Source: a virus. From it: 64,000 bases of DNA. Below the pieces are notes generated by a model. That model did no database searches. It was given only the letters and a program-made list of their open reading frames with translations, and was not told where the DNA came from. The translations under genes were made by a program, and so were the position numbers. The stretch covers positions 50,944 to 114,943 of the IMG/VR virus record IMGVR_UViG_3300044953_000102. One strand, 5' to 3'. This document shows, piece by piece, positions 8,380 through 42,788 of the stretch (its first letter is position 1; each line of letters starts with the position of its first letter).

Positions 8380-8577
8380 ATGAAAGCAAAAATGCCAATG
8401 GTAACAAAAGACGGTAAACAAATACCAGCTTTTGCTGCAGATGGAAAAGGTAAAATGAAAATGGGTGGAGCTAAAAAACCAAAGATGATGGCTGGTGGTG
8501 CTAAACCAAAAGCTATGTATGGTACTGCTATGAAACCTAGTATGATGAAAAAAGGTGGAGCTAAAAAAATGAAATAA
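8380..8577 (+). CDS. Small Lys/Met-rich basic protein with repeated MxxGG motifs
   Basis: ATG at 8380 with an A-rich leader is preferred over TTG8356; KMKMGG, KMMAGG, MMKKGG; TAATG coupling to the next gene. Confidence 0.7.
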   Translation: MKAKMPMVTKDGKQIPAFAADGKGKMKMGGAKKPKMMAGGAKPKAMYGTAMKPSMMKKGGAKKMK

Positions 8578-8774
8578 TGGCCACTAAGAAGACAACTAAA
8601 AGCAAAGTAAACCAGGCTGGTGTTTATACTAAGCCTGGTATGCGTAAGTCTTTGTTTGAAAGAATTAAAGCTGGTACAAAGGGAGGAGATCCTGGAGAAT
8701 GGTCTGCAAGAAAAGCACAACTTTTAGCTAAAGAATATAAGTCTAAGGGTGGTGGTTATAAAACTAAGAAGTAA
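8577..8774 (+). CDS. Small basic protein, N-terminal half of a DUF5872-like family
   Basis: YTKPGMRKSLFERIKAGTKGGDPGEWSARKAQLLAKEYKSKGGGY motif; family name from recall. Confidence 0.65.
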   Translation: MATKKTTKSKVNQAGVYTKPGMRKSLFERIKAGTKGGDPGEWSARKAQLLAKEYKSKGGGYKTKK

Positions 8775-9040
8775 TGGCTAAAGATCCTCAGCAAAGTTTA
8801 AGAGATTGGTCAGCACAAAAGTGGATGACATCTGGAACTTATGCAAATAAGAAGAAAGGTTCTTCTAAAGAGGTAAAGTCAAAAGGTAAAAAAAGGTATT
8901 TACCTGAAGCTGCTTGGGGTTCTTTATCAGCAGGAGAAAAAGCAGCTACAAATAAAGCAAAGGCTAAAGGTAATAGTAAAGGAAAACAATTTGTTAAACA
9001 GCCAAAGGGTATAGCCCAAAAAGCAGCAAGATTTAGATAG
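8774..9040 (+). CDS. Small basic protein, C-terminal half of a DUF5872-like family
   Basis: QQSLRDWSAQKW...RYLPEAAW...KGKQFVKQP motif; TAATG-coupled to the previous gene. Confidence 0.65.
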   Translation: MAKDPQQSLRDWSAQKWMTSGTYANKKKGSSKEVKSKGKKRYLPEAAWGSLSAGEKAATNKAKAKGNSKGKQFVKQPKGIAQKAARFR

Positions 9041-9042
9041 TT

Positions 9043-9282
9043 ATGGCAATTAAAAAAACAACAACAAAATCAACACCAGCTAAGAAAAGTTCTTCAGTTG
9101 GTATTTCTATTTTTGGTGGTAACAAAGCAGAAATGAGAAAATGGGAAGTTGAATCTGCTATGTCTACATTACAAAGAGCTTCTGAGATTCAGAAGAATGC
9201 AAAGTTAATGGCAGATGTAAAAAAGATGGCAGCTGAGAAAGCAAAAGAATTTAACAGTATTGCATCTGGTAAAAAGATTTAA
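9043..9282 (+). CDS. Small basic protein
   Basis: 79-aa Lys-rich ORF in a tightly packed cluster. Confidence 0.7.
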   Translation: MAIKKTTTKSTPAKKSSSVGISIFGGNKAEMRKWEVESAMSTLQRASEIQKNAKLMADVKKMAAEKAKEFNSIASGKKI

Positions 9283-9284
9283 TA

Positions 9285-9629
9285 ATGGCACAGGCAAAAA
9301 CTAAGAAAGTAAAAGTTACTGCCGGTGGTGAAAAACATGTAGTATATAAGAAGACTACAAAAAAAGGAGAAGGAAAGGTTGGTCATATTATGGTCAACCA
9401 TCCTACTAAAGATAAAGGACAGTGGGATACTATAGATTTAACTGCTAAAGCAAAAGCAAAAACAGTTAAACAAGGTGTGGCAGCAACTAGAAAATGGCAT
9501 AAAGAAAATCCTTATCCCAAACAAAAAATGAAGTTGGGTGGAAGTGCAAAGAGTTGTTGGCCTGGTTATGAAAAAAAAGGTACTAAAAAGATGTATGGTA
9601 AAACATATAACAACTGTGTAAAAAAATAG
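9285..9629 (+). CDS. Small basic protein with C-terminal CWPGYEKKG..NCVKK module
   Basis: 114 aa; a KMKLGG linker precedes a 2-Cys module I recall from basic proteins of aquatic phages. Confidence 0.7.
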   Translation: MAQAKTKKVKVTAGGEKHVVYKKTTKKGEGKVGHIMVNHPTKDKGQWDTIDLTAKAKAKTVKQGVAATRKWHKENPYPKQKMKLGGSAKSCWPGYEKKGTKKMYGKTYNNCVKK

Positions 9630-9631
9630 TC

Positions 9632-9952
9632 ATGGCAAGTAGTAGAGCACAACAAGCAGCAATAGCTATCTCAATGAAGAAAGCTGGTAAGAAACCTAAG
9701 ATGAAATCAGGTGGTTCTACTCCTGCTTGGACAAGAAAAGAAGGAAAATCTCCTTCTGGAGGACTTAATGCTAAAGGTAGAGCTTCTTATAACAAGTCTA
9801 CTGGTGGTAATCTTAAAGCTCCTCAACCAGAAGGAGGTCCTAGAAAAAAATCATTTTGTGCTAGATCTGCAGGTCAAATGAAGATGTGGCCTAAAGCAGC
9901 TAAGGATCCAAATAGTAGATTACGATTAGCTAGAAAGAAATGGAAGTGTTAA
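9632..9952 (+). CDS. Small basic protein, DUF6321-like
   Basis: TPAWTRKEGKSPSGGLNAKGRASYN...RKKSFCAR...DPNSR..WKC, preceded by a KMKSGG linker; family name from recall. Confidence 0.7.
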   Translation: MASSRAQQAAIAISMKKAGKKPKMKSGGSTPAWTRKEGKSPSGGLNAKGRASYNKSTGGNLKAPQPEGGPRKKSFCARSAGQMKMWPKAAKDPNSRLRLARKKWKC

Positions 9953-9982
9953 AAATATTATTAATTAAAAAATAAATGTATA

Positions 9983-10198
9983 ATGAAAAAGTTAGTAAAA
10001 AAACAAGTGGGTGGTCCAGTAAGACCTAAAAATGTACAAAGAACAAGCGGTTCACAACCTTTAACAGAATATAGTCCAAAGATTAATAGAGGAGGTGGAA
10101 ATCTTATACCTGTTGGAGCAACTAAACATCCTAAAACAGGAAAACCTTTAAAACCTTCTATGAAGAAAGGTGGAATTGTAAAAGGTAAGAAAAAATAA
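9983..10198 (+). CDS. Small basic protein flanked by xxxGG motifs
   Basis: KKQVGG at the N-terminus and SMKKGG at the C-terminus. Confidence 0.65.
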   Translation: MKKLVKKQVGGPVRPKNVQRTSGSQPLTEYSPKINRGGGNLIPVGATKHPKTGKPLKPSMKKGGIVKGKKK

Positions 10199-10290
10199 TG
10201 AAAGGTATGAAAGCTAAACTTACATCTGCTAAGACAGCTAATGATCCTAACTCTAGGATCAATAAGTCTTTAAGAAAGTGGAATTGTTAA
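10198..10290 (+). CDS. 30-aa orphan C-terminal segment of a DUF6321-like protein (small gene or remnant)
   Basis: Not in ORF track. MKGMKAKLTSAKTANDPNSRINKSLRKWNC is homologous to the C-terminus of 9632..9952; TAATG overlap. Confidence 0.55.
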   Translation: MKGMKAKLTSAKTANDPNSRINKSLRKWNC

Positions 10291-10307
10291 ACTAAAAATT
10301 ATAAGAA

Positions 10308-10973
10308 ATGAAAATGTGTGCTAAATGTGGTGGATCTATGAAAAAAGGTGGTGCTACAAAAAAGATGGCTAAAGGTGGTGTGCAAAAAATTGTTGGTATG
10401 CCTGGATATAATGCAACTCTTTACCCTACATCTTTTAAGAAAGGTGGTGTTAAGAAAATGCAGAGTGGTGGAGAAAAACCTGATAAAAGTGTTTTAAAAA
10501 ATATACTAGGTTTAATTGGTGGAGGATCTGGTATTTTAGCTGGCACAATATTAGGAAATAGAGAAAAGGATTCTGAAAAAGCTAATGAAAGAGATAATAA
10601 AAGAATCCAAAGAAAAAGTGATAGAAGGGAAAAGAAAGGTTACAAACCAATCTCTAGACCATCATTCAAAAATGGTGGTTCTACTTCTTTTGGTATGCTT
10701 TCAGTAAAAGCTGGTGTAGATAAAAATCCTAAACCAACTGCTGCTGATAGAATTGCTGGAGCTAAGATGAAAAAGAAAATGGGTGGTTCAGCAAAACCTT
10801 CTGCTGATCTTAGTGCAAAAACTAAATCTAACATTGCTAAAAAAGCTAGTGCTGGAAAAGACATTGGTAAGAAAGGTAAAGGTTTTGCAAAAGTAGCTGC
10901 TGCTGCAGGTGGTGGTGAAAAAGGTAAAAGAATTGCTGCAGCTGCAATGTGGAAAAATATTAAAAGAGGATAA
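10308..10973 (+). CDS. Lys-rich modular basic protein with six xxxGG motifs
   Basis: MKKGG, MAKGG, FKKGG, MQSGG, FKNGG and KKMGG separate short modules, one of them hydrophobic (ILGLIGGGSGILAGTIL). Confidence 0.7.
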   Translation: MKMCAKCGGSMKKGGATKKMAKGGVQKIVGMPGYNATLYPTSFKKGGVKKMQSGGEKPDKSVLKNILGLIGGGSGILAGTILGNREKDSEKANERDNKRIQRKSDRREKKGYKPISRPSFKNGGSTSFGMLSVKAGVDKNPKPTAADRIAGAKMKKKMGGSAKPSADLSAKTKSNIAKKASAGKDIGKKGKGFAKVAAAAGGGEKGKRIAAAAMWKNIKRG

Positions 10974-11671
10974 TGTTAAATAGTACTATTACCATAAAGA
11001 TTAAACAAAGACTCAATAAACTTGACAGTCAAGATTATGATAACATAACCTGCTGGCAAGTTGTTGAGGCTTTTAATAAAGCTCAGGTGGAATGGTCTAG
11101 GAGACAGCTACATGGTATTAATGTAGTTAAGGAAGGTGATGAACAATCTACTCGTAGAAAGGATGACCTTCAAAAACTTTTAATTAAAACACCTTTGACT
11201 TCAGTAAAGAAAGATCTTTATTATGAAGGAGATGTTCCTGTAAACTATTTACAATGGAAACGTGTAGACATCTATGCAAAAAAAGAGTGTTGTGATAAAA
11301 GAAGAATGACTGTATATCTTGCAGAAGAAGGGAATCTTAATCAACTTCTGAGAGATAAATCAAAACAACCAAGTTTTGAATGGGCAGAAACATTTGCAAC
11401 TTTAATCAACGACACAGTACATCTTTACACAAACAATGAATTTGAAGTAGAGGAAGCATACCTAACCTACTACAGACAACCGGTAAAAATACAAATTGAT
11501 GGATGTTCAGATCCATACACCGGGATTACTTCCACTACAAATGTAGATTGTGAATTTAAAGATGACATAATAGAATTAATAATTGATGAGGCAGTAAGTA
11601 TTCTAGCTGGAGACATAGAGTCTGGAAACCAATTCTCTAGAACACAAGAATCTGCTGAACGTAGTAACTAA
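10973..11671 (+). CDS. Head-tail ring/adaptor protein (crAss-like)
   Basis: LNKLDSQ...EAFNKAQ N-terminus, LTYYRQP and IIDEAVSIL C-terminal motifs, as recalled for crAss ring proteins. Confidence 0.65.
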   Translation: MLNSTITIKIKQRLNKLDSQDYDNITCWQVVEAFNKAQVEWSRRQLHGINVVKEGDEQSTRRKDDLQKLLIKTPLTSVKKDLYYEGDVPVNYLQWKRVDIYAKKECCDKRRMTVYLAEEGNLNQLLRDKSKQPSFEWAETFATLINDTVHLYTNNEFEVEEAYLTYYRQPVKIQIDGCSDPYTGITSTTNVDCEFKDDIIELIIDEAVSILAGDIESGNQFSRTQESAERSN

Positions 11672-11677
11672 TAAATA

Positions 11678-12295: not shown

Positions 12296-12307
12296 TTTTT
12301 ATAATAA

Positions 12308-12338
12308 TTTGGATAATTAAAAACTTTTGACTATATTA
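12308..12338 (+). promoter_or_regulatory. Putative late promoter TTTG-N20-TATATTA
   Basis: Intergenic; matches the recurring architecture. Confidence 0.6.
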
Positions 12339-12370
12339 TAGTATATATTTATTAACTAAAACAAAAAACA

Positions 12371-13720: not shown

Positions 13721-13741
13721 TAGAACATAGTAATAACTCAT

Positions 13742-13780
13742 AAGGAGAGTGAGAGTCTATCTCTCCTCTCCTTTTTTATT
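13742..13780 (+). terminator. Rho-independent terminator
   Basis: AAGGAGAG(T)GAGAG-TCTAT-CTCTCCTCTCCTT followed by a T run. Confidence 0.8.
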
Positions 13781-13788
13781 ATAAAAAA

Positions 13789-14331: not shown

Positions 14332-14349
14332 ACTCTAAAAACCAACAAA

Positions 14350-16640: not shown

Positions 16641-16651
16641 TTTGTATATTA
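16621..16651 (+). promoter_or_regulatory. Putative late promoter CTTG-N20-TATATTA
   Basis: Recurring architecture upstream of 16667. Confidence 0.5.
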
Positions 16652-16666
16652 TAAATAGAACAAAAT

Positions 16667-30500: not shown

Positions 30501-31562
30501 ATTTTAGATGAAGGTTTGGGACAAGCTTTTTTAGCTAAGTCTAACGCAGATGCAATATCTGCAGGTAATAAATGGTTACATAATTGGATACAACATCCTA
30601 CAACACAAATGAAAATTCAAGCTGATATGTTGGATGTAATAAACAATAAAAATTTAAATCCTTACAGGATTAAATATGAAACACCAAGATATGGAGATAT
30701 TGTTCTCAATCCAGAAGAACAATATACAGAAGCATTAAAGATTGCTCAAAATTATATGCCTGATGCTAAACCATATTCTTTTGAAAATTTCTTTTCTAAT
30801 TTAAAAGAGGATAAATTAAATCCAATGTTTGATGTTATGGGTATAACATACAAACATCAGTCAGATCCTATTATGCGTAGTTTATATAGTCATGCATTTT
30901 TTAAACCAAACAGTACTCAAATTGATACTGACTATAAACCTTTTAAACATTATGGGACATTTATTAGAAGAAGTCCATCATTTAGTCCTTATCAAAAAGA
31001 ATTAGTAACAATACATGAAGGTACACATGAGTGGATAACAGATAAATTGTTAAAAGAAACTGGTCAAAAAGATTTAATCTTAAGCAGTATTGATCCAGAA
31101 ATTAAAAAACTTTTTGATAAATGGTCAGTAGATCGTGAAACAAAAGATTTAACTGAGGATGAAAAAAAGCTTGCTTATCTATCAAATCCAACAGAAGTGC
31201 ATGCAAGAATAATGGAATTAAGAAGACATAATAATTTAACTCCTTCTGATTATGTTGATGAAAATATGGCAAAAAAATTTCTTGAACAAATTAAAAATAA
31301 AGAAATATCTGGCGGCAAAGAATTTGCAACAGTTTTAAAAAATGATCCTAAAACATTATCTAAATTAATGAATGATTTATATAATATTTCAATTCCTTTG
31401 GGTGTTGGTATTGGAGGAGCATCTTTATTAAAAAATCCATACAAAGAAGAATCACCAATTGGTGGATATAAAATGGGTGGAGAGTTTGAATTAGGTGATG
31501 AAGTAGATGAAGTTACTATGAAAGAATTAAAAAAATTAGGTTTTACATTTGAAAAAATATAA
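27561..31562 (+). CDS. Modular virion cargo protein: SET domain, Cys hairpins, two zincin-like (HExxH) domains
   Basis: SET motifs KSNIHGKGLF, FHNHS, GTEITTNY (~27708-27950); CPEGY repeats; HEFGH (29868) and HEGTH (31014), each followed by PxExHAR. Confidence 0.7.
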   Translation: MYNKKILIDALKKLGSAKAPAQKKDIVVGSNNPTEMFAMQKGFSPYDKKLNVKKSNIHGKGLFTEQPLKKGELIGLAHVNNQPTPIVGNFHNHSENNATALSIRRGNQRYLVAAKDLEPGTEITTNYRLQPELGQPEDFLHSINETPTARRGGSAPKLPNKKNSRAYSRSLDATNRLFAEHPWFKKSKSRKNKIYDPNAKYYQDGGEQGCPEGYTYNPETKRCTRKNTNCPEGYFFDAQEGRCKSKAYREKFELYNKGTKITPTEEEESYSYWPDDLTLKYLDKDIMNNPEGSEVNRPFLINPIKTIGIYNPEREYEEDIDDRYLADTYVNVYPDLNYQVVVDPSKPKGYNADKSIYYVPDENNFEFEKFKQYKKLKEIEKENLSNLAKYPNLITKEWQEDYKYRPQDDPKLFLDAEYYGQGLPGYYTNLTNMPFDKYKNSIKREFNTGCKDCKYHYGISHEYNDDYNINLINLGHVKKGLKSNDPSYDIRNIKEYDYVDLPDESIIPRFDLESADTEPPIYREGDPSMLVPHMRLEPGKKKSKKHRGRLMYGKGQKYKWTTYRQTKDLEFGTHKTNRPIPALVQKFTGYDPKYYQGYDKEVGDETEFVPGEIERAEQEGRKVNFKGAATLRDLKKQKEYERQWLEYQKQKDEVRQRNEDYLKQYNITPEEYEQYYGPFRRGGQLPKAQYGIPQEFYQNWYQNRVMPTPEGQKLLDKIRPEALERSRQMIPYIYSDKLKLDDAGYYDTKTQEIILNKFLPEAQIEATKQHEFGHHIQAGNKFYNVLDKPHQFLVEQNIVEPEKISTGNSEWDEKLKENYDYVTQPDEMHARVMTLRRLAGFQPNQVITEKDLKDYFNRVKEAGEALDPDIEDLRGVTKGNQSIVNLLNDMVSVPSNREDLQVAKYGVELDLTEDEIKKYVDRGYVVEDISIPSLTKMKKGGLPCPPFCSPLIELSKGLSSIAQNIPKTNFLGRGIANTATILDEGLGQAFLAKSNADAISAGNKWLHNWIQHPTTQMKIQADMLDVINNKNLNPYRIKYETPRYGDIVLNPEEQYTEALKIAQNYMPDAKPYSFENFFSNLKEDKLNPMFDVMGITYKHQSDPIMRSLYSHAFFKPNSTQIDTDYKPFKHYGTFIRRSPSFSPYQKELVTIHEGTHEWITDKLLKETGQKDLILSSIDPEIKKLFDKWSVDRETKDLTEDEKKLAYLSNPTEVHARIMELRRHNNLTPSDYVDENMAKKFLEQIKNKEISGGKEFATVLKNDPKTLSKLMNDLYNISIPLGVGIGGASLLKNPYKEESPIGGYKMGGEFELGDEVDEVTMKELKKLGFTFEKI

Positions 31563-31564
31563 TC

Positions 31565-34156
31565 ATGGCTAAGTATAGAATTACCAGTATACCACAGTCT
31601 TTACCAAAAGCGCAATTAGGTTTATTTAAAAATAAAAATACATCTCCATTATGGGAAGCTCAATCTGTTCCAGTTTTTCCAGATCAAGAATCTTCTATTG
31701 AAGATGTTATGCCTAGAAGAACTGCTGAAGAACAAGCTAATATTTTTCCTATTATAAATCCAGATTTGTCAGGTTCTGCTGAATATGATTTTTCAAAAAG
31801 TTGTCCAAATCGTCAAATTTTTTATAGAGGTCAATGTGTTAGTGAAGATGTATTAAATGTAATTCTTCAAAGAGAACAAGAAACTGAAAAATTTCAAGCT
31901 AAAGAAAGTTTTAGAAATCAACAAATTGCACATAATAAAATGCTTGATGATTTGTATATAAAAAATATGCAAATAGCTCAAGAAGAAAAAAATCTTGCTC
32001 AAAAAATTAAACATGAAGATTATGTAAAAGATTTTAAAAAATCAAAAAAATCTACACAAATAAAACCATTAGACGTATTTGATACAAATACATTAAGTGA
32101 AATGGTTCCAGTTATTGGGGATGATGGAAAAGTAGTAATGGATGAAGAGACTGGTAAACCAAAAATGCAAACAAGAAGAGAAGCACTTAGTTCACAATAT
32201 CTTTTAATTGATAATGATGAAAATAGTAACATTGGTTCAACTGGAACTACTTCTGCTTGGCCATTAGCAGTTGTTGCAGATAGAATTTACAATAGTGGAT
32301 TTCAACCAACACAGTTTAAAACAATATGGAAATTTAATGATGACCAAGTAAGACAAGTAAAAGAACAAACTGGTTCATTAATGGAAAATGCAAAAAATGC
32401 ATATGATAATGAAGCATATAATAGAATTTTAAAAAAAGCACTTGAGCTCAACATTACACCAGAAGAAGCTGCAAAAATTGTTGCTGGAAAAAATTCTAGT
32501 TTTGGATATGCAGAAAGTCTAACAAAAGAATATGCTCCCAATGTTCAGAAAATTATAAATACAGCATTTGAAGATCTTATGAAAAAAACAGGATCAAGTG
32601 CTGATGCAGAAAAACTTAGTCCTACTCAAAAAGAATTATTGCTTAATTTAGAAGAAACAAAGGATCAACAATTCTTAAATATAAATGGTGGTCATTATGT
32701 AACAGATAAAGATGGTTATAAAATATGGGTTCCTCCCGGAGTAGGAGCAAATATAATGCCACTACCTGCTGAAAGTACTGCAGTAAGAAATAAGATAGGT
32801 GCATGGACTACAGATCCTGCAACAGGTAAAAAACAGTGGGTTGCACCTAATAATAATACAGCTTATGAAAATGCTCAAGCTGAAAAACTAATTAAAGAGC
32901 AAGAAAATATGGTTGCTCAAATACAATATGCTGCTTTAAGAAGATTAATTGAATCTCCAGATGTTACTGATGCAGAAAGATTAAAAATAGCTAACGATCC
33001 AAAAAAACTTGAAAAACTAATAAGTGAATATGTAAATTGGTCTTATTCACCTGAAGGAGAATTTGATCCACGTAGAGAACAAACTCAAGGTGAATATAGA
33101 TATACTCCTGGACATTTAAAATCAGATTTTAAAATAACTCCTGAAGGTGCACAATGGTCTCCTGGTCGCTATGGTCAGGGAAGATATATTGATGGTCCTG
33201 TAAATATGGTTTATCCTGAGAAATATGTTATGGGACCTGGTGCAGGAGTTCTTGGTGGAGGTCTTAGATTACTTAATAAACCACTTGCTAGTTTTATTGG
33301 AAGTAGTGCTGCACCTTGGTTAACTGCTGGTAATTTATTTGGTGCTTATACTATATATAATGCAGTTAGACCAGAAGGAACTATTTCAAGTGCATATGAT
33401 AAATTTTCAGAGGGTGATTATAAAGGTGGTGCTTTAAAAAGTCTTGAAGCAGCATTGGAGTTGTTTCCCACTGTAGGTATTATTTCAAAAGGTGCTAAAT
33501 TATTAAAGTCAACACCAAGATTTTTTGAATATACTGCTCCTTCAGGTAGAACTTTTGGTCTTGGAAATGCAAACTTACCAAATATAACAACTGCAGAAAA
33601 ACCTGAGCAATTTCTTAGTTTAATGACAGGTAGTAATGCTTCTCAGTTAAAAAATTTATATTCAACAGAAGCTGATATTATAAATGCAGAAAAAGCACTT
33701 GCTAGTGGTCAAGCATTTCCAAGATATACATTTACTCATCCTGCAAAAACACAATTACAACTTGAACAAGCATATCAGAATTTAGATCCTAAAGAATTTA
33801 TGCTTAAGAATTTAGGATTTAGATTAGGAGAAAGTTCACCTATTGAATTTGGAACTTTTAGTCAACCTACAAAATATTCAACAAAATTTGGAGAATTTAC
33901 TTTTGGCCCTAAAAGATTTTATCCTGCTAAACTTGAGAGTATAGATTTTAAATCACCCACGGTCTATGATGAAGGTTCTGTAAATATGTTAGGTCTTAAA
34001 GAAGGAGGTTATCTACCACAAGCTCAAGGAGGGTTAATTGCATTAGCTAAAAATTTATCTAAAGGTTTAGCAATTCCAGTTTCATCTACAGTGTCTGCAT
34101 TAAGAAAAATACCAGCAACATATACTGCAATTGCTGAAGGTGGTAATTTATTTTAA
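31565..34156 (+). CDS. Putative virion cargo protein (probably continues by +1 frameshift to 34478)
   Basis: 863 aa; N-terminal MAKYRI..PKAQLG, internal LKEGGYLPQAQGG; ends TTT-TAA. Confidence 0.65.
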   Translation: MAKYRITSIPQSLPKAQLGLFKNKNTSPLWEAQSVPVFPDQESSIEDVMPRRTAEEQANIFPIINPDLSGSAEYDFSKSCPNRQIFYRGQCVSEDVLNVILQREQETEKFQAKESFRNQQIAHNKMLDDLYIKNMQIAQEEKNLAQKIKHEDYVKDFKKSKKSTQIKPLDVFDTNTLSEMVPVIGDDGKVVMDEETGKPKMQTRREALSSQYLLIDNDENSNIGSTGTTSAWPLAVVADRIYNSGFQPTQFKTIWKFNDDQVRQVKEQTGSLMENAKNAYDNEAYNRILKKALELNITPEEAAKIVAGKNSSFGYAESLTKEYAPNVQKIINTAFEDLMKKTGSSADAEKLSPTQKELLLNLEETKDQQFLNINGGHYVTDKDGYKIWVPPGVGANIMPLPAESTAVRNKIGAWTTDPATGKKQWVAPNNNTAYENAQAEKLIKEQENMVAQIQYAALRRLIESPDVTDAERLKIANDPKKLEKLISEYVNWSYSPEGEFDPRREQTQGEYRYTPGHLKSDFKITPEGAQWSPGRYGQGRYIDGPVNMVYPEKYVMGPGAGVLGGGLRLLNKPLASFIGSSAAPWLTAGNLFGAYTIYNAVRPEGTISSAYDKFSEGDYKGGALKSLEAALELFPTVGIISKGAKLLKSTPRFFEYTAPSGRTFGLGNANLPNITTAEKPEQFLSLMTGSNASQLKNLYSTEADIINAEKALASGQAFPRYTFTHPAKTQLQLEQAYQNLDPKEFMLKNLGFRLGESSPIEFGTFSQPTKYSTKFGEFTFGPKRFYPAKLESIDFKSPTVYDEGSVNMLGLKEGGYLPQAQGGLIALAKNLSKGLAIPVSSTVSALRKIPATYTAIAEGGNLF

Positions 34157-34478
34157 TATAGGTTCAGCAAAAGGTGTTCCTGGTCGTGCTACAGATCCAT
34201 TAACTAATACCGCAAGAGGAACTGGTTTACATACAAGACAATGGATAAGTGGTAAGGGAAATCAAATAGGCACTATTGATCCTACTTTTAGATTTACGGA
34301 TATGAACAAAATGAGTGCTAAAGATTATTTAGAAATGGAAAGAGAAAAAGAAGACTTAATAAAGCTTTTTAATACTGGTTGGAGAGGTCATTATAAAAAA
34401 GGTGGTGTTTCAATGAAACTTTCTAAAAAAGAAATTGATCAATATATCAAAGATGGATATATAGTTGAGGATGAATAA
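34131..34478 (+). CDS. +1-frame continuation of 31565 ORF (C-terminal part)
   Basis: Poor TTG start; overlaps the upstream stop; ends with the cargo C-terminal motif YKKGG..LSKKEIDQYIKDGYIVEDE. Confidence 0.55.
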   Translation: MLKVVIYFNIGSAKGVPGRATDPLTNTARGTGLHTRQWISGKGNQIGTIDPTFRFTDMNKMSAKDYLEMEREKEDLIKLFNTGWRGHYKKGGVSMKLSKKEIDQYIKDGYIVEDE

Positions 34479-34519
34479 ACTTTATAAGTTTATTGATTAA
34501 ATTAAAATTTAGTATATTT
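34474..34519 (+). promoter_or_regulatory. Perfect palindrome AATAAACTT-TAT-AAGTTTATT overlapping putative promoter TTTA-N20-TATATTT
   Basis: 9-bp inverted repeat at 34474-34494; near-copies at 4298 and 42786. Confidence 0.6.
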
Positions 34520-34536
34520 AATATATAATATATCTT

Positions 34537-37500
34537 ATGAAAAAATCTGTAAGAATAAGAAAAGCACTTCCAGGAGAAAAACCAGGGTATTATAATAAGA
34601 CAGCCAAGTTTTTGAAAAAGGCTCAAATGGGCATGGAAGTAAATTCACCAAGTAATGATCCTCAAAGATTAAATGCAATATATACTAATGTATATGCTTC
34701 TTTAATGTCTGACATTACTCCAGATGTAATTTATAGTTCATTAATTGGTGAGTATGCTTTAGATGAGAATACTGCTCTTATGATATTAAGATCTGCATTA
34801 GGAAAACTTGCAGAAGAAGGTAAAATTGATCCAGAGTCTTTAGAGGGTGGTAATTCACAACAAAATCAAAAACAAGAAGAACAACCTAGTGAAACACAAG
34901 ACAGAGAAAGTCAAGAAGAATATGATCAACGCATGTCTGAAGATGCTGAACAAGATGAGTTGGCAATGTCAGATGAAGGTTATTATGATGAAGAAGAAGC
35001 AGCAAATAATGATAATTCTCATTTAGATACCGAACAAGAACAACAACAACAGGCTTTTGCATTTGGTGGTTACTATGATACGGGTGGTGAGTCAGATGAA
35101 GATTATTCAGATTACTATGATGATTCAAATCAAAGTTCTTCTCCAGAAAATGCTGTTATAAATCAATATAATAATCCTGGTCAAAATAAAATGAAGAAAC
35201 CTTTTTCTATGGAAGATCTAATAAATATGACACCAGGTATTCAAGGTACTCAATCTGTACCAGGTATAGAAGATTATTTAGGAGATTATAGACCTATATC
35301 AGAATCATATGGGTCAATGGATTACTTACCACAAGCACAATGGGGAGGATTAAGTTTACTACCTGGTTTAACAAGACAAGTTGAAAAAGGCATAGAAGCT
35401 TTTAATAAAGGCTATAGTGCAATTAGGGGTTTAAGTCCAATGACTAATGTATCAGGTATAAGAAAAGCACTTCCACTTGCTACATTAACAGGAGAAGCTT
35501 TAACTAAATTACCATATATTGGAAAAAAATTAGCTCCACAATTAAAAACCACATTTACACAAAACAGAAATCATTTATGGAAGGTTTTAAATGGTGCTGG
35601 TCCAAATCAAGAAATTTTTGGAAATGTTGGAACTCGTGCTAATCCTGATGGTAGTTTACAAGTAAATAGATTATTACTATATCAAGATGATGTAGCAAAA
35701 ATAGTTAGTCAAATTGAAGACTCTGGAAGTCCTGCTGCAGTTATAGAACCAGATGGTTCAATGAGTTGGGATTATAGCAAAACACTTCCTGAAAGAAAAG
35801 TATTTGAGCTTGGTGAAGTACAACCAATGGCTGCAGCAGATGGTTTAGTAAGTGGTGTATATCCCATGAATTCTAAAGTAACTGGTGGAGTGGATGATAA
35901 AGGAAATAAATTTTTTGAGATTTCACATAAATTTGGCCCTAATCAAACATTACCTTTTGGATCAACATCAAGTAAAGCAAAAGAATTAACATTTAAAAAT
36001 AGATTTTATTATAAAACTGTAGTTGATCCTGCTACTAATCAAACATCTATTAAAGTGTTTGGACCATTGGGAGAAGAATTAACACCTGGCACTCAAACTA
36101 AATTTAAAATACAAAGACCTTTTATACCATCTGTATTAAGAACTGTAGCAGAAAAATTTTTGCAAGATCCTAATACACCTTTTCCAAATTTTCAAGTAGA
36201 TTTTGGAAGAAATCCAAACGGTCCTTTTACAAGTAGGGTTGGTCGCGTAGATATTACTTCTACTCCACCATCTACAGTAGATAGGTTAAGTACTAGGGGT
36301 AAAATTGGTAGAGGTTTAGAAAATTTTGCTTTAAGTACTTATATACCACAAATATTTGGATTAGGTAATCCATTAAGAACATCTCCAAAAAATGTAACTC
36401 CATTAAAACTTCCAGTTCTTGGATATACAAGTTCTGCATTAGGTCCTAATGTTGTTAATCCAGCACTTGAAACTGGTGTTGCTAGTGACATTGCAAATGC
36501 AATGAACTATAAATATAGAATAGGACGTAATGCATTAATAGGAGCAGGAGGATTAGGTTACTTAGGGTATAAGACTTGGGATGCTTTTTATAATCAGTGT
36601 CAATGTGATAATCCAACAGGTAGAAATTATATGCCTAAAGATGAGTATGGTAATTGTCCTTGTGGAGGAGATGTTGATGATAAAAGAATACTAGATCCTA
36701 CAGAACAGCCGACTGTTCAAGATATTATGAAGTTTTTGGATGAGCAGGGTCTTTATCCTACTGAAAAAGATTACTATAGACTTAAAGGAAAAAATAAAAG
36801 AAGTAAAGCTGTTGATTATAAAACTGGAGGTATAACAGAAAAACAATTTGTAAAAGCATTCTCTTCTAAATTCCAAGATGGTGGACCTCAAGATCAATCA
36901 TTGGGTAAAGGTAAAAGAATGGATACCCTTACTAATGATGTAGAAGCTAGAAAAGATATCTTTAAAAGTAAACTTAAAGATAATTCTAATGTAGCTCTTA
37001 CAAAAGAAATTTATAAAAATGCACAAAGTAATCCTCAGATCTTAAACATGTTAATGCAAGATGGTCCTAAAGAAAATCTTGCTGAAGATACAGGAATGCA
37101 AACAGCACAATTTGGAGGAGTTCCTAATTGGTATACTGGATATAACACAGCTTTATCACCAAAAGAGTATAGAAAGTTATATAGACAAATGAAAAGAATG
37201 ATACCAAGAGGTCTAGATATATCTAGAGCTAACATGGCATCAAACTTTTATGACAATAGATTTATGCAGCCAGGTTACGGTACAGTAGTTACTACACCTG
37301 AGTATATGAATATGCTTGCTATGTCTTCATTACCATTGTACAAAAGTGCAGCCAATGTTTATGGAGGTGGTAGAAAACCTTCTGAATTACAAGCATATGA
37401 AGCTACAGCAATCAATAATGAAAAAGGAATACCATTACTTCCTGAAATGACTCCAGACTTTATTGATTCTCCATTAGTAAGGGGTTCAGGTGGTCAATTT

Positions 37501-39366
37501 ATCGCAGGTGATGAAAATCTTTTGACATATGATCAAGGAGGTTTTGTAGATATGGATGCTGAAAATCCTTTAGTAAGATTTATCTACGGTGGAGATGAAA
37601 CCGGATACTATGAACCAGAAGATTTACCAATGGCTCAATTTGGTCAAAATATAATGAATAAAGATCTTGAGCAAAGAGTAGTAGGGGATAAATTATCATA
37701 TGATGATTGGGTTGAGGGTGAAAGAGATGATTTTGCAACAACACATCCTGGTGAAGATTTTGATACTTGGAAAGCTGGTCAAACTGGTCAAGATGATTAT
37801 AAAAAATATGAAGATTTTTATGGTAAATCTTTATATGATTATACAAACTTTGATGATCCAAATGTAAATCCTAATCCAAATAATAATCCAAATAATAATA
37901 CACAAAATGGTAAAAATTGTCCTCAAGGATATGTTTGGAATGCAACATATAATGCATGTATACCGGTAGCTCAAGTTACTTATAATCCAAGAGTTGTTAG
38001 AGGTCAATCAGGATTATTTAGAAATTTAGCTCCTTGGAATCCAGCATTTGGTTATGCAGGATCTTGGACAAAACAAATGTCATTACCATATCAATTAGGT
38101 TCTCGTAATCCTTATATGGGTCAACTTACCGGTGCACCTGCTGCACGATATGTTACCAAAAAAGGAATATTTGGAAAACCTAAAAAATGGATTGATATTT
38201 ATGATGTTGATGCAGCAGATGATATTTTAAGTAATTACGATTATGTGGGTCCAGAAAATATAAACTCATATGATAATAATAATATGCAGCAAACTAGAAA
38301 AAAAAGTTCTGGTGATAGACTAGATAGACGGATTGCAAGATGGGATAGAAGAGCTGCAAGAAATGAAGAGGAGTATGAACCTATGGAAGGTGCTATTACA
38401 AACTATGAAAACCCAGATGATTTTTATAATGCAATAAATCCTGTTTCTAGAGAAGATGCTCAATTCTTAGGTGCTGGTTATACTGCTTCTGAAGATTATA
38501 AAAATAAAGGTAAAGTAAGAACAGTTAGAGATGCAGAAGGTAACTGGTATGATAGAGATGATAAAATGATACCTGGTAAAAAAGCTCCTTCAGAAGTTCC
38601 TGGATATTATGATAAAAAAAGTAATTTAACAAAAGATGAACTTAAGTTACTTGAAAATTTAAAATATTTTAGACATGGAGGTTTACATACATATGGGCCT
38701 GGTGGTGCTAATGATCCTAATACTAATCCACCGGCTTGGATGTCAGGTCCTAATCCAAAACAATATGGCACATATGATGGAAATATGATAAGTCAAGCAC
38801 CAATGGGTACAACCAAAGGTTTTGATGAGTTTGGTAATCCTGTAAGTCAAGCACCAGCATTTGGTATTCAACCACCAGCAGCTGCATCACCAGAAAACTA
38901 TTATGTTAAAGATCAAAATCCAATTAAAAGAAATTTAGTTGGGGTAGAAAATAAAAGAAAAGACATGTTTAATGTTGATTCAGAATCTTTTCTAAATCAA
39001 ACTAATGCATTTGCAAGAGGAGCTTTAAATTTATTTGATCCTGAGAAAAAAAGACAATGTGGTCCTGGAACTACTTGGAACTCAAGCACACAAACATGCC
39101 AACCTACAGATGCAATGGATATCTATGCTACAGCTACTGAACAAGATAGAGGTGACTGGACAGATATAGGTTCTAAGGCTGGTCTATATAGATATGATCA
39201 AGAAGGACAAGATAGAAGCAGTAGAGCAACCTTTGGTCAGTATGGTGGATACATGCAAGATGGTGGTTTTTATGACCCATATTACGAAGAGGATGAAGAA
39301 GTAATTATGACTCCTGAAGAATTAGAACAATTCTTGGCATCTGGAGGACAAGTTGAATATTTATAA
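34537..39366 (+). CDS. Large putative virion cargo/ejection protein
   Basis: 1609 aa; many xxxGG motifs, acidic stretch, hydrophobic ALIGAGGLGYLGY segment, Cys hairpins; position between muzzle and RNAP. Confidence 0.65.
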   Translation: MKKSVRIRKALPGEKPGYYNKTAKFLKKAQMGMEVNSPSNDPQRLNAIYTNVYASLMSDITPDVIYSSLIGEYALDENTALMILRSALGKLAEEGKIDPESLEGGNSQQNQKQEEQPSETQDRESQEEYDQRMSEDAEQDELAMSDEGYYDEEEAANNDNSHLDTEQEQQQQAFAFGGYYDTGGESDEDYSDYYDDSNQSSSPENAVINQYNNPGQNKMKKPFSMEDLINMTPGIQGTQSVPGIEDYLGDYRPISESYGSMDYLPQAQWGGLSLLPGLTRQVEKGIEAFNKGYSAIRGLSPMTNVSGIRKALPLATLTGEALTKLPYIGKKLAPQLKTTFTQNRNHLWKVLNGAGPNQEIFGNVGTRANPDGSLQVNRLLLYQDDVAKIVSQIEDSGSPAAVIEPDGSMSWDYSKTLPERKVFELGEVQPMAAADGLVSGVYPMNSKVTGGVDDKGNKFFEISHKFGPNQTLPFGSTSSKAKELTFKNRFYYKTVVDPATNQTSIKVFGPLGEELTPGTQTKFKIQRPFIPSVLRTVAEKFLQDPNTPFPNFQVDFGRNPNGPFTSRVGRVDITSTPPSTVDRLSTRGKIGRGLENFALSTYIPQIFGLGNPLRTSPKNVTPLKLPVLGYTSSALGPNVVNPALETGVASDIANAMNYKYRIGRNALIGAGGLGYLGYKTWDAFYNQCQCDNPTGRNYMPKDEYGNCPCGGDVDDKRILDPTEQPTVQDIMKFLDEQGLYPTEKDYYRLKGKNKRSKAVDYKTGGITEKQFVKAFSSKFQDGGPQDQSLGKGKRMDTLTNDVEARKDIFKSKLKDNSNVALTKEIYKNAQSNPQILNMLMQDGPKENLAEDTGMQTAQFGGVPNWYTGYNTALSPKEYRKLYRQMKRMIPRGLDISRANMASNFYDNRFMQPGYGTVVTTPEYMNMLAMSSLPLYKSAANVYGGGRKPSELQAYEATAINNEKGIPLLPEMTPDFIDSPLVRGSGGQFIAGDENLLTYDQGGFVDMDAENPLVRFIYGGDETGYYEPEDLPMAQFGQNIMNKDLEQRVVGDKLSYDDWVEGERDDFATTHPGEDFDTWKAGQTGQDDYKKYEDFYGKSLYDYTNFDDPNVNPNPNNNPNNNTQNGKNCPQGYVWNATYNACIPVAQVTYNPRVVRGQSGLFRNLAPWNPAFGYAGSWTKQMSLPYQLGSRNPYMGQLTGAPAARYVTKKGIFGKPKKWIDIYDVDAADDILSNYDYVGPENINSYDNNNMQQTRKKSSGDRLDRRIARWDRRAARNEEEYEPMEGAITNYENPDDFYNAINPVSREDAQFLGAGYTASEDYKNKGKVRTVRDAEGNWYDRDDKMIPGKKAPSEVPGYYDKKSNLTKDELKLLENLKYFRHGGLHTYGPGGANDPNTNPPAWMSGPNPKQYGTYDGNMISQAPMGTTKGFDEFGNPVSQAPAFGIQPPAAASPENYYVKDQNPIKRNLVGVENKRKDMFNVDSESFLNQTNAFARGALNLFDPEKKRQCGPGTTWNSSTQTCQPTDAMDIYATATEQDRGDWTDIGSKAGLYRYDQEGQDRSSRATFGQYGGYMQDGGFYDPYYEEDEEVIMTPEELEQFLASGGQVEYL

Positions 39367-39374
39367 CATAACCA

Positions 39375-42300
39375 ATGATAAAAGTTAGAATTAAAAAGTT
39401 ACCTCAAGCAAGAACTGGATACCAAGTTCAAGGAGCATTAGTAAATGACGTACCTGCTATGGGAGGTGCAGACTATAATGCATACATTGGTGCACCAAAA
39501 CTTCGGGAAAGTAAATACATCAAAGCTGTCCCTAGAGATGAAGCAAATCTAGAAGCAGAAGGTAGAGAAACAGTATATGGAGACATCAATGGTGATGGAA
39601 TGCCAGAACATAAAATTATTGTTGGTCCAAGACATGCTCAAGGTGGAGTTCCTTTAAATCTTCCAGAAGATACTTTTATTTTCTCTGACACAAGAGCAAT
39701 GAGAATAAAAGATCCAGAATTACTAAACATGTTTGGTAAAGGAGGTACAAATAAATCTTATACTCCGGCAGAACTAGCTAAACAATACGATGTACAGAAG
39801 TATAGAAAAATACTAGAAGATCCTGAGACAGATGCAATAGAAAGAAAGACTGCAGAGTTAATGATCAAAAAGTATGTTGTTAAACTAGGCTGTCTTGCTC
39901 TTGCACAAGAATCTATGAAAGGATTCCCACAGGGTATCCCAGCAGTAGCAAAACCATGTATGGAAGCTAGAGGTTTAACTGAGCAAGATATTCTACCTAA
40001 TAAAGAAATATCTGTTCTAAATGATCAGTTAAAAAAACAAATGGAACAAGAAGGAGCGACAGATGAAAACATACTTCAACAAGCTGAAGAGATGAATGAT
40101 GGTAATCCTGTTGCACAACCACAAGAAATGGGTCCTCCTCAAGAACAAATGGAAGCTCCTTCACCAGAAGAAATGATGATGTATAGTGGATATAGAAGAA
40201 GATTAAGAAGAGCACAAGAAGGAATGCAACAACCATCTCCTGAAGAAATGGCAATGATGCAACAGCAACAACAAGGTGGTCAAGATGAAATGGGTGAGAT
40301 AATGAAAGAAGTTGCAAATGCTCTTCAAAGAGGTGCTGATCCTTCTGAAGTTGTTATGAGTTTATTACAGAACAACATTCCACCAGATGCAATTGTACAA
40401 ATATTTACACAACTTGGTGCTGAACCACAACAAGCTGCTCAAATAGTACAGCAAGTAATAGCACAGGCCCAAGGTGGTGGTCAAGAACAAATGATGCCAC
40501 AAGAACAACCTATGTCAGAAGAAGAAGCAATGATGATGCAACAACAACAGATGCAACAACAAGCTCCTCCTATGGCACAGTATGGTATGACAATGGGTGG
40601 TTATGATATGCCATTCTATGATATGCCAGAAGCTGCTTATGGTATGGCAATGGGTTCTGGTCAATCTCAAAACTATCAAGGAAGGCCTAAAAGAATTCCT
40701 GGATCAGGTCCTATGTTTCCATTAACTAAAGCAGGGAATGGAATAACTATTGATGCTTCTAATATGACTAATGAACAACTTCAAAGAGCTATTTGGGATG
40801 CACAACAAAAAGATAAAAATGCTGAAATTACTGTAACTCGTAAAGATGCTAATGGTCAAGTAAAAACACAAAAACTTAAATCATCAGGATTTATGATTCC
40901 TGAAGGTAAGGATATTACAGATTTAAAAGGTTTTCCAGATACACCTGCAGGAAGGGTTGCTGCAGCACAATATTTATTAATTGAAGAAAACTTAAATAAT
41001 TCTACAGTTAAAGCTGAGATTATTAAAAATACTAAAGAAGCACTTGAAAATCCAGATGCTTGGACAGGTAAAGGTGGTACAAGAAATGCTAATAATACTT
41101 GGTCAAATAAATATGGTGCATTACCTTCTGATGAGGAAATTATAAAACAAGCATTAAATCATCAAAAAAGAAATTTGATGTTTGAAGCTAATGAAATTGA
41201 TCCGCAATTATTTTCTGATGTTGGTCATAAACTTGATGATGTTGATACTGTACTTAATAAAGGGTACGTTAATCCAAAAACTGGACAAAAATATACAAGA
41301 GCTGAGGCAGAAGCAGCACTTAAATCTCTTAATGTTAAAGGTTTTACTAATGTTGCTGCAATGTCAAATATACTAGGAGTTCCTTTAGACCCTAAAGGAA
41401 AAGATAGAGTTCTCCAGCAAGGAACAATGCACGGATATGCAAAAGCATATCAAAACTTTTCATCTGGTGCTTATAACTCTAATCCAGATGCAAAATATGC
41501 TATGGATAATTTTTTGGGTAATGTAAGTTTAGTTCACTCAGGTGCGGATGATGAAACTTCAATGGGAGCTTTGTATGGATCAATAGGTAATAGAATATCT
41601 CCTCTTGATGATAAATATGATTATTCAGATAATAATTGGTATCAAAAAAATTCTGGCAGATTAGTGAAAGGTAAGTTTACTACTTATGGAGATACAACAG
41701 CTGGTCATAAATATATGGTTGGTAAAAGAAATCTAGAATTTGAAGATATTCCAGAAAGTGGACCTTGTCAATGTGAAAAAGATAAATTACCTGATGGATC
41801 ACCGGACCCTTCATATAAACCAAAAGATGCTCAAGGTAATTGTACTTGTGATCCTCCAAAACCTAAAGATTGTCCATGTCAAAAATCTGATGGTACAGTA
41901 ATAAACATGACTGCAAATGCAGATGGTACTTGCCCGCCTTGTACAGAACCTAAAGATATACCTGTACCAGGTCCTCCTGCTGAATGGTGGTTACAAGATA
42001 CAATTAAAACTACCGGTGCATTTGGAGATTTAATGGGAGTTAAAAAGTATATGCCGTGGGCAGCTCCTGCAAAACTTCAAACACCAAGACCTACATTCTT
42101 AGATCCAACAAGAGAACTTGCTGCTAATGCAGAACAAGCAAATATACAAACTGCAGGTATGGCACAGTTTGCTGGACCACAAGCACTATCTGCAAGATCA
42201 TCAAGTGTTCAAGGTCAAGCTTCTAAGAATGCTGCAGATATACTTTCTAAATATAATAATGCTAATGTTAACATAGCAAATCAGTTTGAGATGAAAGCTA

Positions 42301-42788
42301 CAGACATTAGAAACCAGGAAAGTATGTTGAATCAAGCAACACAGCAAAGATTGTATGATCAAAATACAATTGCTAATCAACAGTTTGATAATGCTAAGTT
42401 GGCAATGAGAAACAACTTAAGAAATTACTATACTAACGCAATTACCAATAGATGGAAAACTGATGCATTAAATCAGATGTTCCCGAACTATCAAGTATCT
42501 CCAGGAGTAGGTGGACAAATGTATTATCAACCTACAGCAAAAACAACTAATCCTTCACAAACTTCAGGAAAAACTAAAGAAGAATGGTTTAAGTGGTGTA
42601 AAGATAATGGTGATCCAAATCCTTCTGCATGTGCTAATAGAATGATGAGTGGTAATAATTCAAATTCAGGAGGTGGAGCAGATCCAAATATGGTAAATAC
42701 TATGTATGGAACAGCTAGAGATGGTGGAGAAATGTTTGAAGATGGTGGTTTTGTTTATATTGATTCATGGCTTCCATTTATCATGTAA
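39375..42788 (+). CDS. Cargo protein (crAss cargo-1-like N-terminal domain)
   Basis: NLEAEGRET...GPRHAQGGV..FIFSD motif recalled from crAss cargo proteins; Q/M/P-rich linker; N/Q-rich coiled C-terminus. Confidence 0.65.
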   Translation: MIKVRIKKLPQARTGYQVQGALVNDVPAMGGADYNAYIGAPKLRESKYIKAVPRDEANLEAEGRETVYGDINGDGMPEHKIIVGPRHAQGGVPLNLPEDTFIFSDTRAMRIKDPELLNMFGKGGTNKSYTPAELAKQYDVQKYRKILEDPETDAIERKTAELMIKKYVVKLGCLALAQESMKGFPQGIPAVAKPCMEARGLTEQDILPNKEISVLNDQLKKQMEQEGATDENILQQAEEMNDGNPVAQPQEMGPPQEQMEAPSPEEMMMYSGYRRRLRRAQEGMQQPSPEEMAMMQQQQQGGQDEMGEIMKEVANALQRGADPSEVVMSLLQNNIPPDAIVQIFTQLGAEPQQAAQIVQQVIAQAQGGGQEQMMPQEQPMSEEEAMMMQQQQMQQQAPPMAQYGMTMGGYDMPFYDMPEAAYGMAMGSGQSQNYQGRPKRIPGSGPMFPLTKAGNGITIDASNMTNEQLQRAIWDAQQKDKNAEITVTRKDANGQVKTQKLKSSGFMIPEGKDITDLKGFPDTPAGRVAAAQYLLIEENLNNSTVKAEIIKNTKEALENPDAWTGKGGTRNANNTWSNKYGALPSDEEIIKQALNHQKRNLMFEANEIDPQLFSDVGHKLDDVDTVLNKGYVNPKTGQKYTRAEAEAALKSLNVKGFTNVAAMSNILGVPLDPKGKDRVLQQGTMHGYAKAYQNFSSGAYNSNPDAKYAMDNFLGNVSLVHSGADDETSMGALYGSIGNRISPLDDKYDYSDNNWYQKNSGRLVKGKFTTYGDTTAGHKYMVGKRNLEFEDIPESGPCQCEKDKLPDGSPDPSYKPKDAQGNCTCDPPKPKDCPCQKSDGTVINMTANADGTCPPCTEPKDIPVPGPPAEWWLQDTIKTTGAFGDLMGVKKYMPWAAPAKLQTPRPTFLDPTRELAANAEQANIQTAGMAQFAGPQALSARSSSVQGQASKNAADILSKYNNANVNIANQFEMKATDIRNQESMLNQATQQRLYDQNTIANQQFDNAKLAMRNNLRNYYTNAITNRWKTDALNQMFPNYQVSPGVGGQMYYQPTAKTTNPSQTSGKTKEEWFKWCKDNGDPNPSACANRMMSGNNSNSGGGADPNMVNTMYGTARDGGEMFEDGGFVYIDSWLPFIM

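Follow-up and report, generated by a model that had tools for sequence, protein, structure and literature searches.

Crassviruses are among the most abundant phages known, and megadaltons of protein are loaded into, stored in and injected from their virions. In crAss001, the genes following the muzzle gene encode the cargo proteins C1 and C2 and, after these, three RNA-polymerase-associated giant proteins, all of which are present in virions (PMC10172136). Neither a Gly-Gly motif nor proteolytic processing is mentioned in this structure paper (PMC10172136), and no processing and no size-resolved data for gp45 (C1) are reported in the crAss001 papers. The domains of polyvalent proteins were defined by Iyer et al. 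in a paper which describes no junction peptide and contains the words 'linker' and 'glycine' 0 times (PMC5512222). Here, the right-hand 64 kb of the 114,943-bp virus record IMGVR_UViG_3300044953_000102 (positions 50,944–114,943 of the record, 64,000 nucleotides, hereafter the window) were analysed with regard to a five-residue motif, [MFY]-x-x-G-G, recurring in small basic proteins and in the proteins encoded behind the muzzle gene. A search of the accessible literature yielded no paper joining Crassvirales with Gly-Gly and no description of the motif.

The gene order of the window is anchored by the muzzle protein (22060–27561, + strand, 1,833 aa; Pfam PF25731 crAss_MUZ, E 1.6e-26), with four motif-rich genes located directly 3' of its gene on the same strand. 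By synteny with crAss001, 27561–42788 is the predicted C1/C2 position and 42845 to the window end the predicted position of the giant set. Judged by this gene order, for a virus known from a metagenomic record alone, the products of 27561–42788 are most likely cargo proteins, and their crAss001 counterparts suggest that the motif-bearing ones are most likely stored in the tail barrel/portal region and injected first. As for C1 and C2 (gp45 and gp46; PMC10172136; PDB 7QOG), the genes directly follow the muzzle gene and encode long, partly unstructured proteins. Unlike crAss001, the window encodes four proteins of greater size, which possess enzyme-like modules and many more copies of the motif, as well as a cassette of small basic proteins that crAss001 lacks. 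In both protein groups, the motif is a real junction peptide and is conserved.

Enrichment and grammar of the Gly-Gly motif

Every Gly-Gly context was catalogued and mapped to coordinates, whereby all peptides quoted in a preliminary description of the window were recovered in place. Per-protein composition-preserving shuffles (2,000 shuffles) were used as null model. In the 13 basic and cargo-position proteins (5,809 aa), [MFY]-x-x-G-G was present in 28 copies, compared with 4.9 ± 2.2 copies in the shuffles and a shuffle maximum of 14 (z score 10.1 within the window), whereas the other 86 proteins of the genome (30,287 aa) were at chance level, with 10 copies versus 11.7 ± 3.4 expected. The third position before the Gly pair was occupied by Met, Phe or Tyr at 27 of 65 sites (background 11%), and [LIV]-x-x-G-G was not enriched within the window (z 1.3). 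A companion element, A-Q-x-G, was found in 12 copies versus 2.0 expected (z 6.9) and in 0 copies in the remaining proteins; plain Gly-Gly pairs numbered 77 in the set, with 45.7 expected. The muzzle protein was at chance level (2 copies, 1.6 expected), and the three giant proteins, with 0, 0 and 0 core motifs versus 0.6–1.0 expected, represent a motif-free contrast set.

In the preliminary description, the motif had been written as [M/F/Y/A]-x-x-G-(G), and it had been said to punctuate the basic and cargo proteins, not to recur in portal, MCP, terminase or tail proteins, and to stand or fall, among other things, with a frequency above compositional expectation. The strict Met/Phe/Tyr Gly-Gly form agrees with these statements (z of about 10, remaining proteins at chance, replication as given below). 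The loose single-Gly form [MFYA]-x-x-G does not carry them, as it reached only z 2.8 (117 copies, 93 expected).

For replication, five complete relatives were compared, the muzzle proteins of which are 53–67% identical. In each of them, enrichment was confined to the small basic open reading frames (ORFs) after the capsid genes and to the 3–4 genes following the muzzle gene, the portal, muzzle and giant proteins being at chance level. Relatives of the capsid protein are encoded on more than 599 IMG/VR stretches, indicating a very abundant lineage; the best 80 of these stretches (capsid protein 90–96% identical) contained 44 loci with both cassette-flanking genes, and the 44 basic cassettes held 323 motif copies versus 34.5 ± 5.6 expected. 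The basic and cargo gene set had been picked after the motif was seen; since the same gene positions were enriched in five genomes and in 44 independent cassettes, selection bias is ruled out as an explanation. The same tests address whether the motif could have arisen by chance or from composition in proteins rich in Gly and Lys. Gly is abundant in these proteins and the loose form is weakly enriched, but the shuffles, the cassettes and the five-genome replication refute this explanation, to which practically no weight is left.

The core consists of Met/Phe/Tyr, usually Lys/Gln/Ala, any residue and Gly-Gly. In the cargo-position proteins, the pair is followed at +1 by Tyr (3.6x) or Phe (2.8x) and at +2 by Val/Ile (2.5x); in the basic proteins, Ser, Ala or Thr follows, the cassette consensus being Lys, Met, Lys, Lys, Gly, Gly, small residue, Val/Lys/Thr, Lys. 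Pro stands directly after the pair at some sites. Copies occur in tandem doublets 7–10 residues apart (8–9 residues in the cassette) and 3–12 residues from protein ends. A frequent extension comprises the Gly pair, Tyr/Gln and then L-P-K-A-Q-x-G, and in separately encoded cargo proteins the N-terminus is formed by a basic stretch together with the L-P-x-A-Q-x-G half. Further longer conserved elements are an acidic tag of about 20 residues (helix-like stretch, Gly pair, hydrophobic strand-like stretch), located internally or at the very C-terminus, a conserved lead-in which precedes Cys-knot modules and closes with Tyr-Tyr-x-x-Gly-Gly, and acidic doublets. Internal translation starts at the Met copies were considered and rejected as a general origin of the motif, since Phe and Tyr occupy the same position.

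Module boundaries and the DUF6321 junction

Across the six genomes, the cargo proteins have a mosaic structure with block-wise homology. Among the internal BLASTP block endpoints of these proteins, 35 of 189 were located within 5 residues of a motif, compared with 8.8 ± 2.9 for randomly placed motifs, with the block ends clustering precisely at the second Gly. For the cassette, the corresponding count was 261 of 961 (135 ± 11 expected), with ends peaking on the second Gly and starts peaking at the hydrophobic residue or just after the pair. Such an excess is partly expected wherever a conserved island sits in divergent linkers, though the island itself is the claim. In protein pairs of 45–85% overall identity, the two Gly residues of the motif were 94% and 91% identical, versus 82% for other Gly, 70% for all other positions and 57% for the motif flanks. 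It is at the motif junctions that modules have been exchanged among relatives. The homology breakpoints, together with the DUF6321 junction described below, bear out the earlier proposals that the motif lies at module boundaries and that the linkers could serve as module-shuffling points; M-Q-K-G before the SET-like module, which had been counted among the boundary copies, contains only one Gly and does not exceed chance level.

Breakpoints on the motif would also be produced if repeated codons provided micro-homology promoting in-frame recombination between modules, and a modest codon bias was observed, the first Gly codon being GGT in 76% of motif pairs versus 61% of other Gly pairs. However, Gly-Gly is encoded by at least four synonymous codon pairs, the three codons before it are free to vary, and it is the amino acids that are conserved; moreover, the mechanics of alignment would likewise place breakpoints at a conserved island. 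As the codons vary, the signal is placed at the protein level, and a DNA-level origin is considered very improbable.

An independent and broad test was provided by a basic protein encoded at 9632–9952 (+ strand), which comprises a flexible N-terminal part, the motif (9701–9715) and a DUF6321 domain at residues 38–104 (Pfam PF19846, E 8e-18). Searches among 1.84 billion cluster representatives gave 1,826 DUF6321 relatives at E ≤ 0.001, with the domain behaving as a promiscuous module, almost always C-terminal, on proteins of 90 to 1,800 residues. By a rough count, most fused forms among the 150 best representatives (about 85) carry Phe/Tyr/Met, Lys/Ala, x, Gly-Gly directly before the DUF6321 core, sometimes with Ser or His after the pair and often as a doublet, while some carriers possess ART-PolyVal, YkuD or peptidoglycan-binding domains. 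About 20 stand-alone DUF6321 proteins among these 150 start with Met-Ala and then immediately with the core, just past where the Gly pair would be. In the AlphaFold model of the 9632–9952 protein (65 sequences), the predicted local distance difference test (pLDDT) was 88–94 at residues 30–106 and below 50 at residues 12–24; the motif (residues 23–28) falls in the low-confidence stretch, the block 21–30 averaging 55. As this stretch lies directly before the fold, the motif is predicted to be a flexible lead-in outside the DUF6321 fold. The model gave no match in the PDB, and no paper mentioning DUF6321 was found in the literature search. DUF6321 was further noted in 537 phage records, mostly T4-like cyanophages and pelagiphages, two of which state structural protein; an invariant internal Gly-Gly-Leu and a terminal Cys pair are characteristic of the domain. 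New here are the breakpoints on the second Gly, the Gly pair as the best-kept part of fast-evolving flanks, the DUF6321 fusion and the flexible stretch before the fold.

The motif might alternatively be a common structural turn or linker with no signalling role, spread by module shuffling and recurring through shared ancestry and tolerance. In keeping with this, several longer conserved cassettes hold the motif (the acidic helix/Gly-Gly/strand tag and three other elements of 15–40 residues), some copies lie within folded parts, e.g. at residues 86–97 of the 1,137-aa cargo-position protein, and some sites turn over between orthologues. A mere linker would not readily account for one five-residue core that recurs in unrelated surroundings, be they basic, acidic or Cys-knot, and strictly takes Met/Phe/Tyr but not Leu/Ile/Val, for the joining of DUF6321 to many unrelated partners, or for a Gly pair which is kept better than the surrounding linker, so that this explanation is judged improbable.

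Motif-bearing genes and their surroundings

Cargo-position protein 1 (27561–31562, + strand, 1,333 aa) contains a SET-like module, Cys-knot modules and two HExxH zincin-like modules, with core motifs at 28164–28178, 29595–29609, 30369–30383 and 31467–31481 and A-Q-x-G at 28272–28283 and 29622–29633. Matches were obtained to Pfam SET (2e-05) and to the metallo-protease family phrog_87 (E 6e-04), and the score against DUF6782 was 23.1 bits, below the cut-off of 27. The HExxH sequences are located at residues 770 and 1152, and BLAST blocks to relatives stop at residues 206–207 and 941, which are motif ends. The two HExxH modules are paralogous, each with a conserved His-Ala-Arg...Leu-Arg-Arg about 60 residues downstream. 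These zincins are not conserved, the relatives having different zincins or none.

Cargo-position protein 2 (31565–34156, + strand, 863 aa) has an N-terminal L-P-K-A-Q-x-G (A-Q-x-G at 31610–31621) and a C-terminal composite in which A-Q-x-G (34022–34033) stands beside a Leu-type motif. It is followed by a small ORF (34302–34478, + strand) consisting only of a motif (34392–34406) and an acidic C-terminal tag of about 20 residues, which in tblastn was 50% identical to the C-terminus (residues 1034–1061) of the orthologue of the neighbouring upstream gene in the related genome G004. Here (34131–34478), this tag is in another frame than the upstream gene and represents a detached tag, a frameshift or a sequencing error.

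The most motif-rich product is cargo-position protein 3 (34537–39366, + strand, 1,609 aa), with 9 core motifs versus 1.8 expected (35056–35070, 35074–35088, 36817–36831, 36871–36885, 37528–37542, 37579–37593, 38668–38682, 38692–38706 and 39253–39267), four A-Q-x-G copies (starting at 34621, 35335, 37105 and 37633) and a C-terminal tag ending with a Gly-Gly turn. Cargo-position protein 4 (39375–42788, + strand, 1,137 aa) is the best conserved of the four. Some of its motif copies are common to all six orthologues and others turn over; the sites near residues 27–31 and 400–415 and the C-terminal doublet (42714–42749) are kept in all or most of them. A folded domain was assigned to residues 45–187 (AlphaFold pLDDT 80–88 at residues 45–210), and its fold was aligned to residues 425–548 of 7qog_M with VIA-align (Z 4.5, root-mean-square deviation 4.1, 88 aligned residues, 24% identity, the highest in the VIA-align list), a weak match from which a resemblance of residues 45–187 to the portal-bound domain of crAss001 C1 is tentatively suggested. 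BLASTP and hhalign comparisons of this domain with gp45 were negative, and Foldseek against the PDB returned nothing. The cargo proteins showed no sequence homology to solved structures at E ≤ 1, and a search of the cargo genes with PF25725 crAss_CARG1 gave no match.

The basic cassette consists of eight small, very basic ORFs (K+R 0.2–0.3) at 8380–10973 (+ strand), between the post-capsid gene and the ring-like genes, with further core motifs on the + strand at 8455–8469, 8485–8499, 8545–8559, 9528–9542, 10160–10174, 10338–10352, 10365–10379, 10434–10448, 10458–10472 and 10665–10679. In the 44 loci it is hypervariable, with lengths of 1.4–4.9 kb and 5–11 genes despite a capsid protein at least 90% identical, which recalls the internal-protein loci of T4-like phages and, by this analogy, suggests an arms-race function. 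Residues 66–83 of a 221-aa basic protein (10308–10973) form a Gly-rich hydrophobic stretch resembling a glycine-zipper membrane helix and recalling the Gly-rich predicted transmembrane region of crAss001 gp45; a search of the ESM Atlas with this protein returned viral hypothetical clusters only. Cys-bracketed mini-modules (Cys, Pro/Trp, x, Gly, Tyr ... Cys) were noted at 9540–9629, 28180–28300, 37900–37960 and 39040–39110; they give weak matches to chitin-binding peritrophin-A, recur in cargo and basic proteins and are also located upstream of DUF6321 in other phages.

The three giant proteins (42845–63999, + strand; 1,063, 2,473 and >3,510 aa), which correspond by position to the RNA-polymerase-associated cargo of crAss001, gave zero Pfam matches. 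The ORF of >3,510 aa (53470–63999) runs off the contig end, so that the protein may be longer or may continue at the other end of the record (G000:C1:115-4242). In the related records G003 and G002, a cargo gene is split across the contig ends with a stretch repeated on both sides, which indicates a terminal repeat or an assembly overlap, not two genes. The record is classed as linear and 96% complete, and all large genes of the window are on the + strand. Large terminase, portal and major capsid protein were identified via PHROGs; the relatives of the portal are crAss-like phages, the closest cultured one being Leptolyngbya phage Lbo-JY46 (34% identity), with 23–28% identity to Cellulophaga, Flavobacterium and gut crassviruses.

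Uncut junction or cleavage site, and comparison with known systems

The preferred reading, given a probability of roughly 0.45, is that the motif is an uncut junction, hinge or docking peptide. The motif would form the joint between exchangeable modules, the Gly pair would act as a hinge in beads-on-a-string proteins threaded unfolded through portal and tail, and through the flanking hydrophobic residues the peptide would dock, weakly and multivalently, to a conserved protein of the virion (portal, ring or scaffold). The enrichment, specificity and conservation of the motif, its location at module borders and the flexibility before one fold are observations, whereas the virion location (by synteny), the hinge or docking function and the absence of cutting are inferences. 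This reading is supported by an enrichment that six genomes and 44 cassettes show at corresponding gene positions only, by the homology breakpoints on the motif, by the high identity of its two Gly residues and by the flexible stretch before the DUF6321 fold. The sequences point the same way in that the motif joins this fold to unrelated N-terminal parts in diverse proteins, and in that hydrophobic residues lie on both sides of the pair, with Pro after it at some sites. Further support comes from the lack of any GG-specific or prohead protease family and from crAss001 gp45, in which related aromatic plus Gly-Gly sites were found at residues 205–210, 259–266, 427–433 and 559–565, flanking the tail-barrel-bound helix (214–245) and the portal-bound domain (425–552); the site at 427–433 lies inside the portal-bound domain, which is modelled continuously (PMC10172136). 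Doublets and near-terminal copies suit multivalent binding better than module release.

Several observations weigh against an uncut junction. The giant proteins are packaged in crAss001 and carry no motif, so that it is not needed for packaging as such. The docking partner may be named as a candidate only, and the disorder propensity of the motif flanks did not differ from the rest of these proteins. Moreover, the stand-alone DUF6321 proteins starting exactly past the Gly pair and the separately encoded cargo proteins starting with the second half of the composite junction both have the look of cleavage products, HExxH domains are present in cargo proteins and in a conserved giant protein, and gp45 escaped detection at its full-length size in published gel bands, as described below. 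The motif-free giants with crAss001-packaged homologues also show that the motif is not a general capsid-loading tag, and the capsid-loading code suggested in the preliminary description is not upheld in this respect.

Less probable than the uncut junction, though a serious rival to it, is a role of the motifs as proteolytic maturation sites. In this case the cargo and basic proteins would represent polyproteins, processed at the Gly pair or beside it, either inside the head or once injected. The protease would come from the host or be a zincin carried in the virion (a cargo zincin or the HExxH domain conserved in the giant protein), and both effector modules and small basic peptides would be set free. 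A fixed hydrophobic residue upstream of Gly-Gly is a typical protease-site pattern, the motif is located exactly at module borders, and the starts of the stand-alone DUF6321 proteins and cargo genes mentioned above would be explained. Thermolysin-like zincins prefer aromatic or aliphatic residues at P1', a preference which the residues after the pair would suit. Among the carriers of the motif are domains of polyvalent proteins, the processing of which by zincins has been predicted (PMC5512222), and an HExxH at residue 846 of the >3,510-aa giant protein is shared by all six genomes and by crAss001 gp47.

The enzyme was sought by family profile searches over six frames of the whole genome. No match to the C5, C48 and C39 families (PF00770, PF02902, PF03412) was obtained at E ≤ 1, although a very divergent enzyme may escape such searches, and no M23, S77, S78, S14 or S49 family was matched in the six frames (PF03420, PF04586, PF00574 and PF01343 among the profiles used); MPTase-PolyVal (PF18818) had no match in this genome, and two head-module proteins of 418 aa and 340 aa belong to no Pfam or PHROG family. 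The earlier statement that no dedicated maturation protease is recognisable agrees with these results. The cargo zincins, named there as candidates, are not conserved among the relatives and do not qualify as a general protease. Cutting is further opposed by a register unlike that of adenain, papain-like protease (PLpro) and C39 sites with Leu/Ile unused, by doublets and copies 3–12 residues from the termini, which would give useless tiny peptides, by Pro after the pair at some sites, and by the continuous cryo-electron microscopy model across one crAss001 site. Somewhat less probable still than cutting in general is the more specific proposal that the motif specifies the cuts of a maturation system not known before in tailed phages, with cargo polyproteins and basic core-like precursors as substrates and the packaged zincin of the giant protein or an unrecognised protease as enzyme.

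Full-length sizes were assessed by peptide-mass fingerprinting, for which the published matrix-assisted laser desorption/ionisation (MALDI) peak lists of crAss001 gel bands were re-analysed (PMC6235969 supplement; band 10 consisting of seven peaks only). The fingerprint places gp50 and gp47 in the 270-kDa band and gp49 and gp44 in the 150-kDa band, and also portal, gp26/gp22, gp25 and gp23, at their full-length sizes; intact gp47, gp49 and gp50 count against cutting. By contrast, gp45 (91 kDa) was never above decoy level in bands of at least 70 kDa, though the equimolar portal was detectable, which would favour cutting; this non-detection is a weak point, since for gp45 it covers the bands of at least 70 kDa and mixtures suppress minor components. 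In the original band paper, gp45 and gp46 are not among the identified bands (PMC6235969), and the 2023 liquid chromatography–tandem mass spectrometry data for crAss001 come from one gel band, with no size information.

The motif is a five-residue peptide which marks exactly the proteins in the presumed first-ejected cargo position and delimits their swappable modules, and it has been kept from freshwater relatives to crAss001 gp45. It offers a concrete, mutable handle on loading, threading or processing and a simple rule by which giant phage proteins lacking annotation may be divided into modules, and it accounts for the in-frame exchange of effector modules. If the sites were cut, they would define a new maturation system in tailed phages, parallel to adenovirus core maturation, and what has been described in crAss001 as one protein in both tail and capsid would be separate fragments.

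Among known systems, the cargo-loading peptides of encapsulins are short, consist of Gly plus hydrophobic residues, are often C-terminal and dock cargo uncut inside an HK97-fold shell. Unlike these, the present motif also occurs internally, and motif-free giants are packaged in crAss001. Adenain (C5) cuts the core precursors pVII and pX of adenovirus at sites with Met/Leu/Ile at P4 and Gly-Gly at P2–P1, and pS273R of African swine fever virus cuts Gly-Gly-X. The motif resembles both in being short, in ending with Gly-Gly after an upstream Met-type residue and in its occurrence in very basic DNA-associated and internal virion proteins. It differs from adenain sites in that its hydrophobic residue stands one residue farther from the Gly pair (at P5, assuming a cut behind the pair) and in that Phe and Tyr are used, but not Leu/Ile. 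The analogy to these two viruses drawn previously therefore fails on register, residue choice and enzyme (no C5, C48 or C39 match).

The internal proteins of T4 are a hypervariable set of small basic proteins encoded beside the head genes and sharing only a short peptide, of which one N-terminal copy is present and is removed by the prohead protease after Glu. The basic cassette has this arrangement in common, with hypervariable small basic proteins by the head genes and one shared short peptide; unlike the T4 targeting sequence, the motif is multi-copy and internal or terminal, and no S77 protease (PF03420) was found. A likeness to the polyvalent proteins (Iyer et al. 2017, PMC5512222) is given by the many unrelated effector-type modules in one packaged (here presumably packaged) polypeptide, the mosaic structure and the putative zincin-like domains, as well as by ART-PolyVal among the DUF6321 carriers. 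Protein 1, with its SET-like module, two HExxH modules and Cys-knot modules, is a mosaic within the range of two to fifteen unrelated effector-type domains by which polyvalent proteins are recognised.

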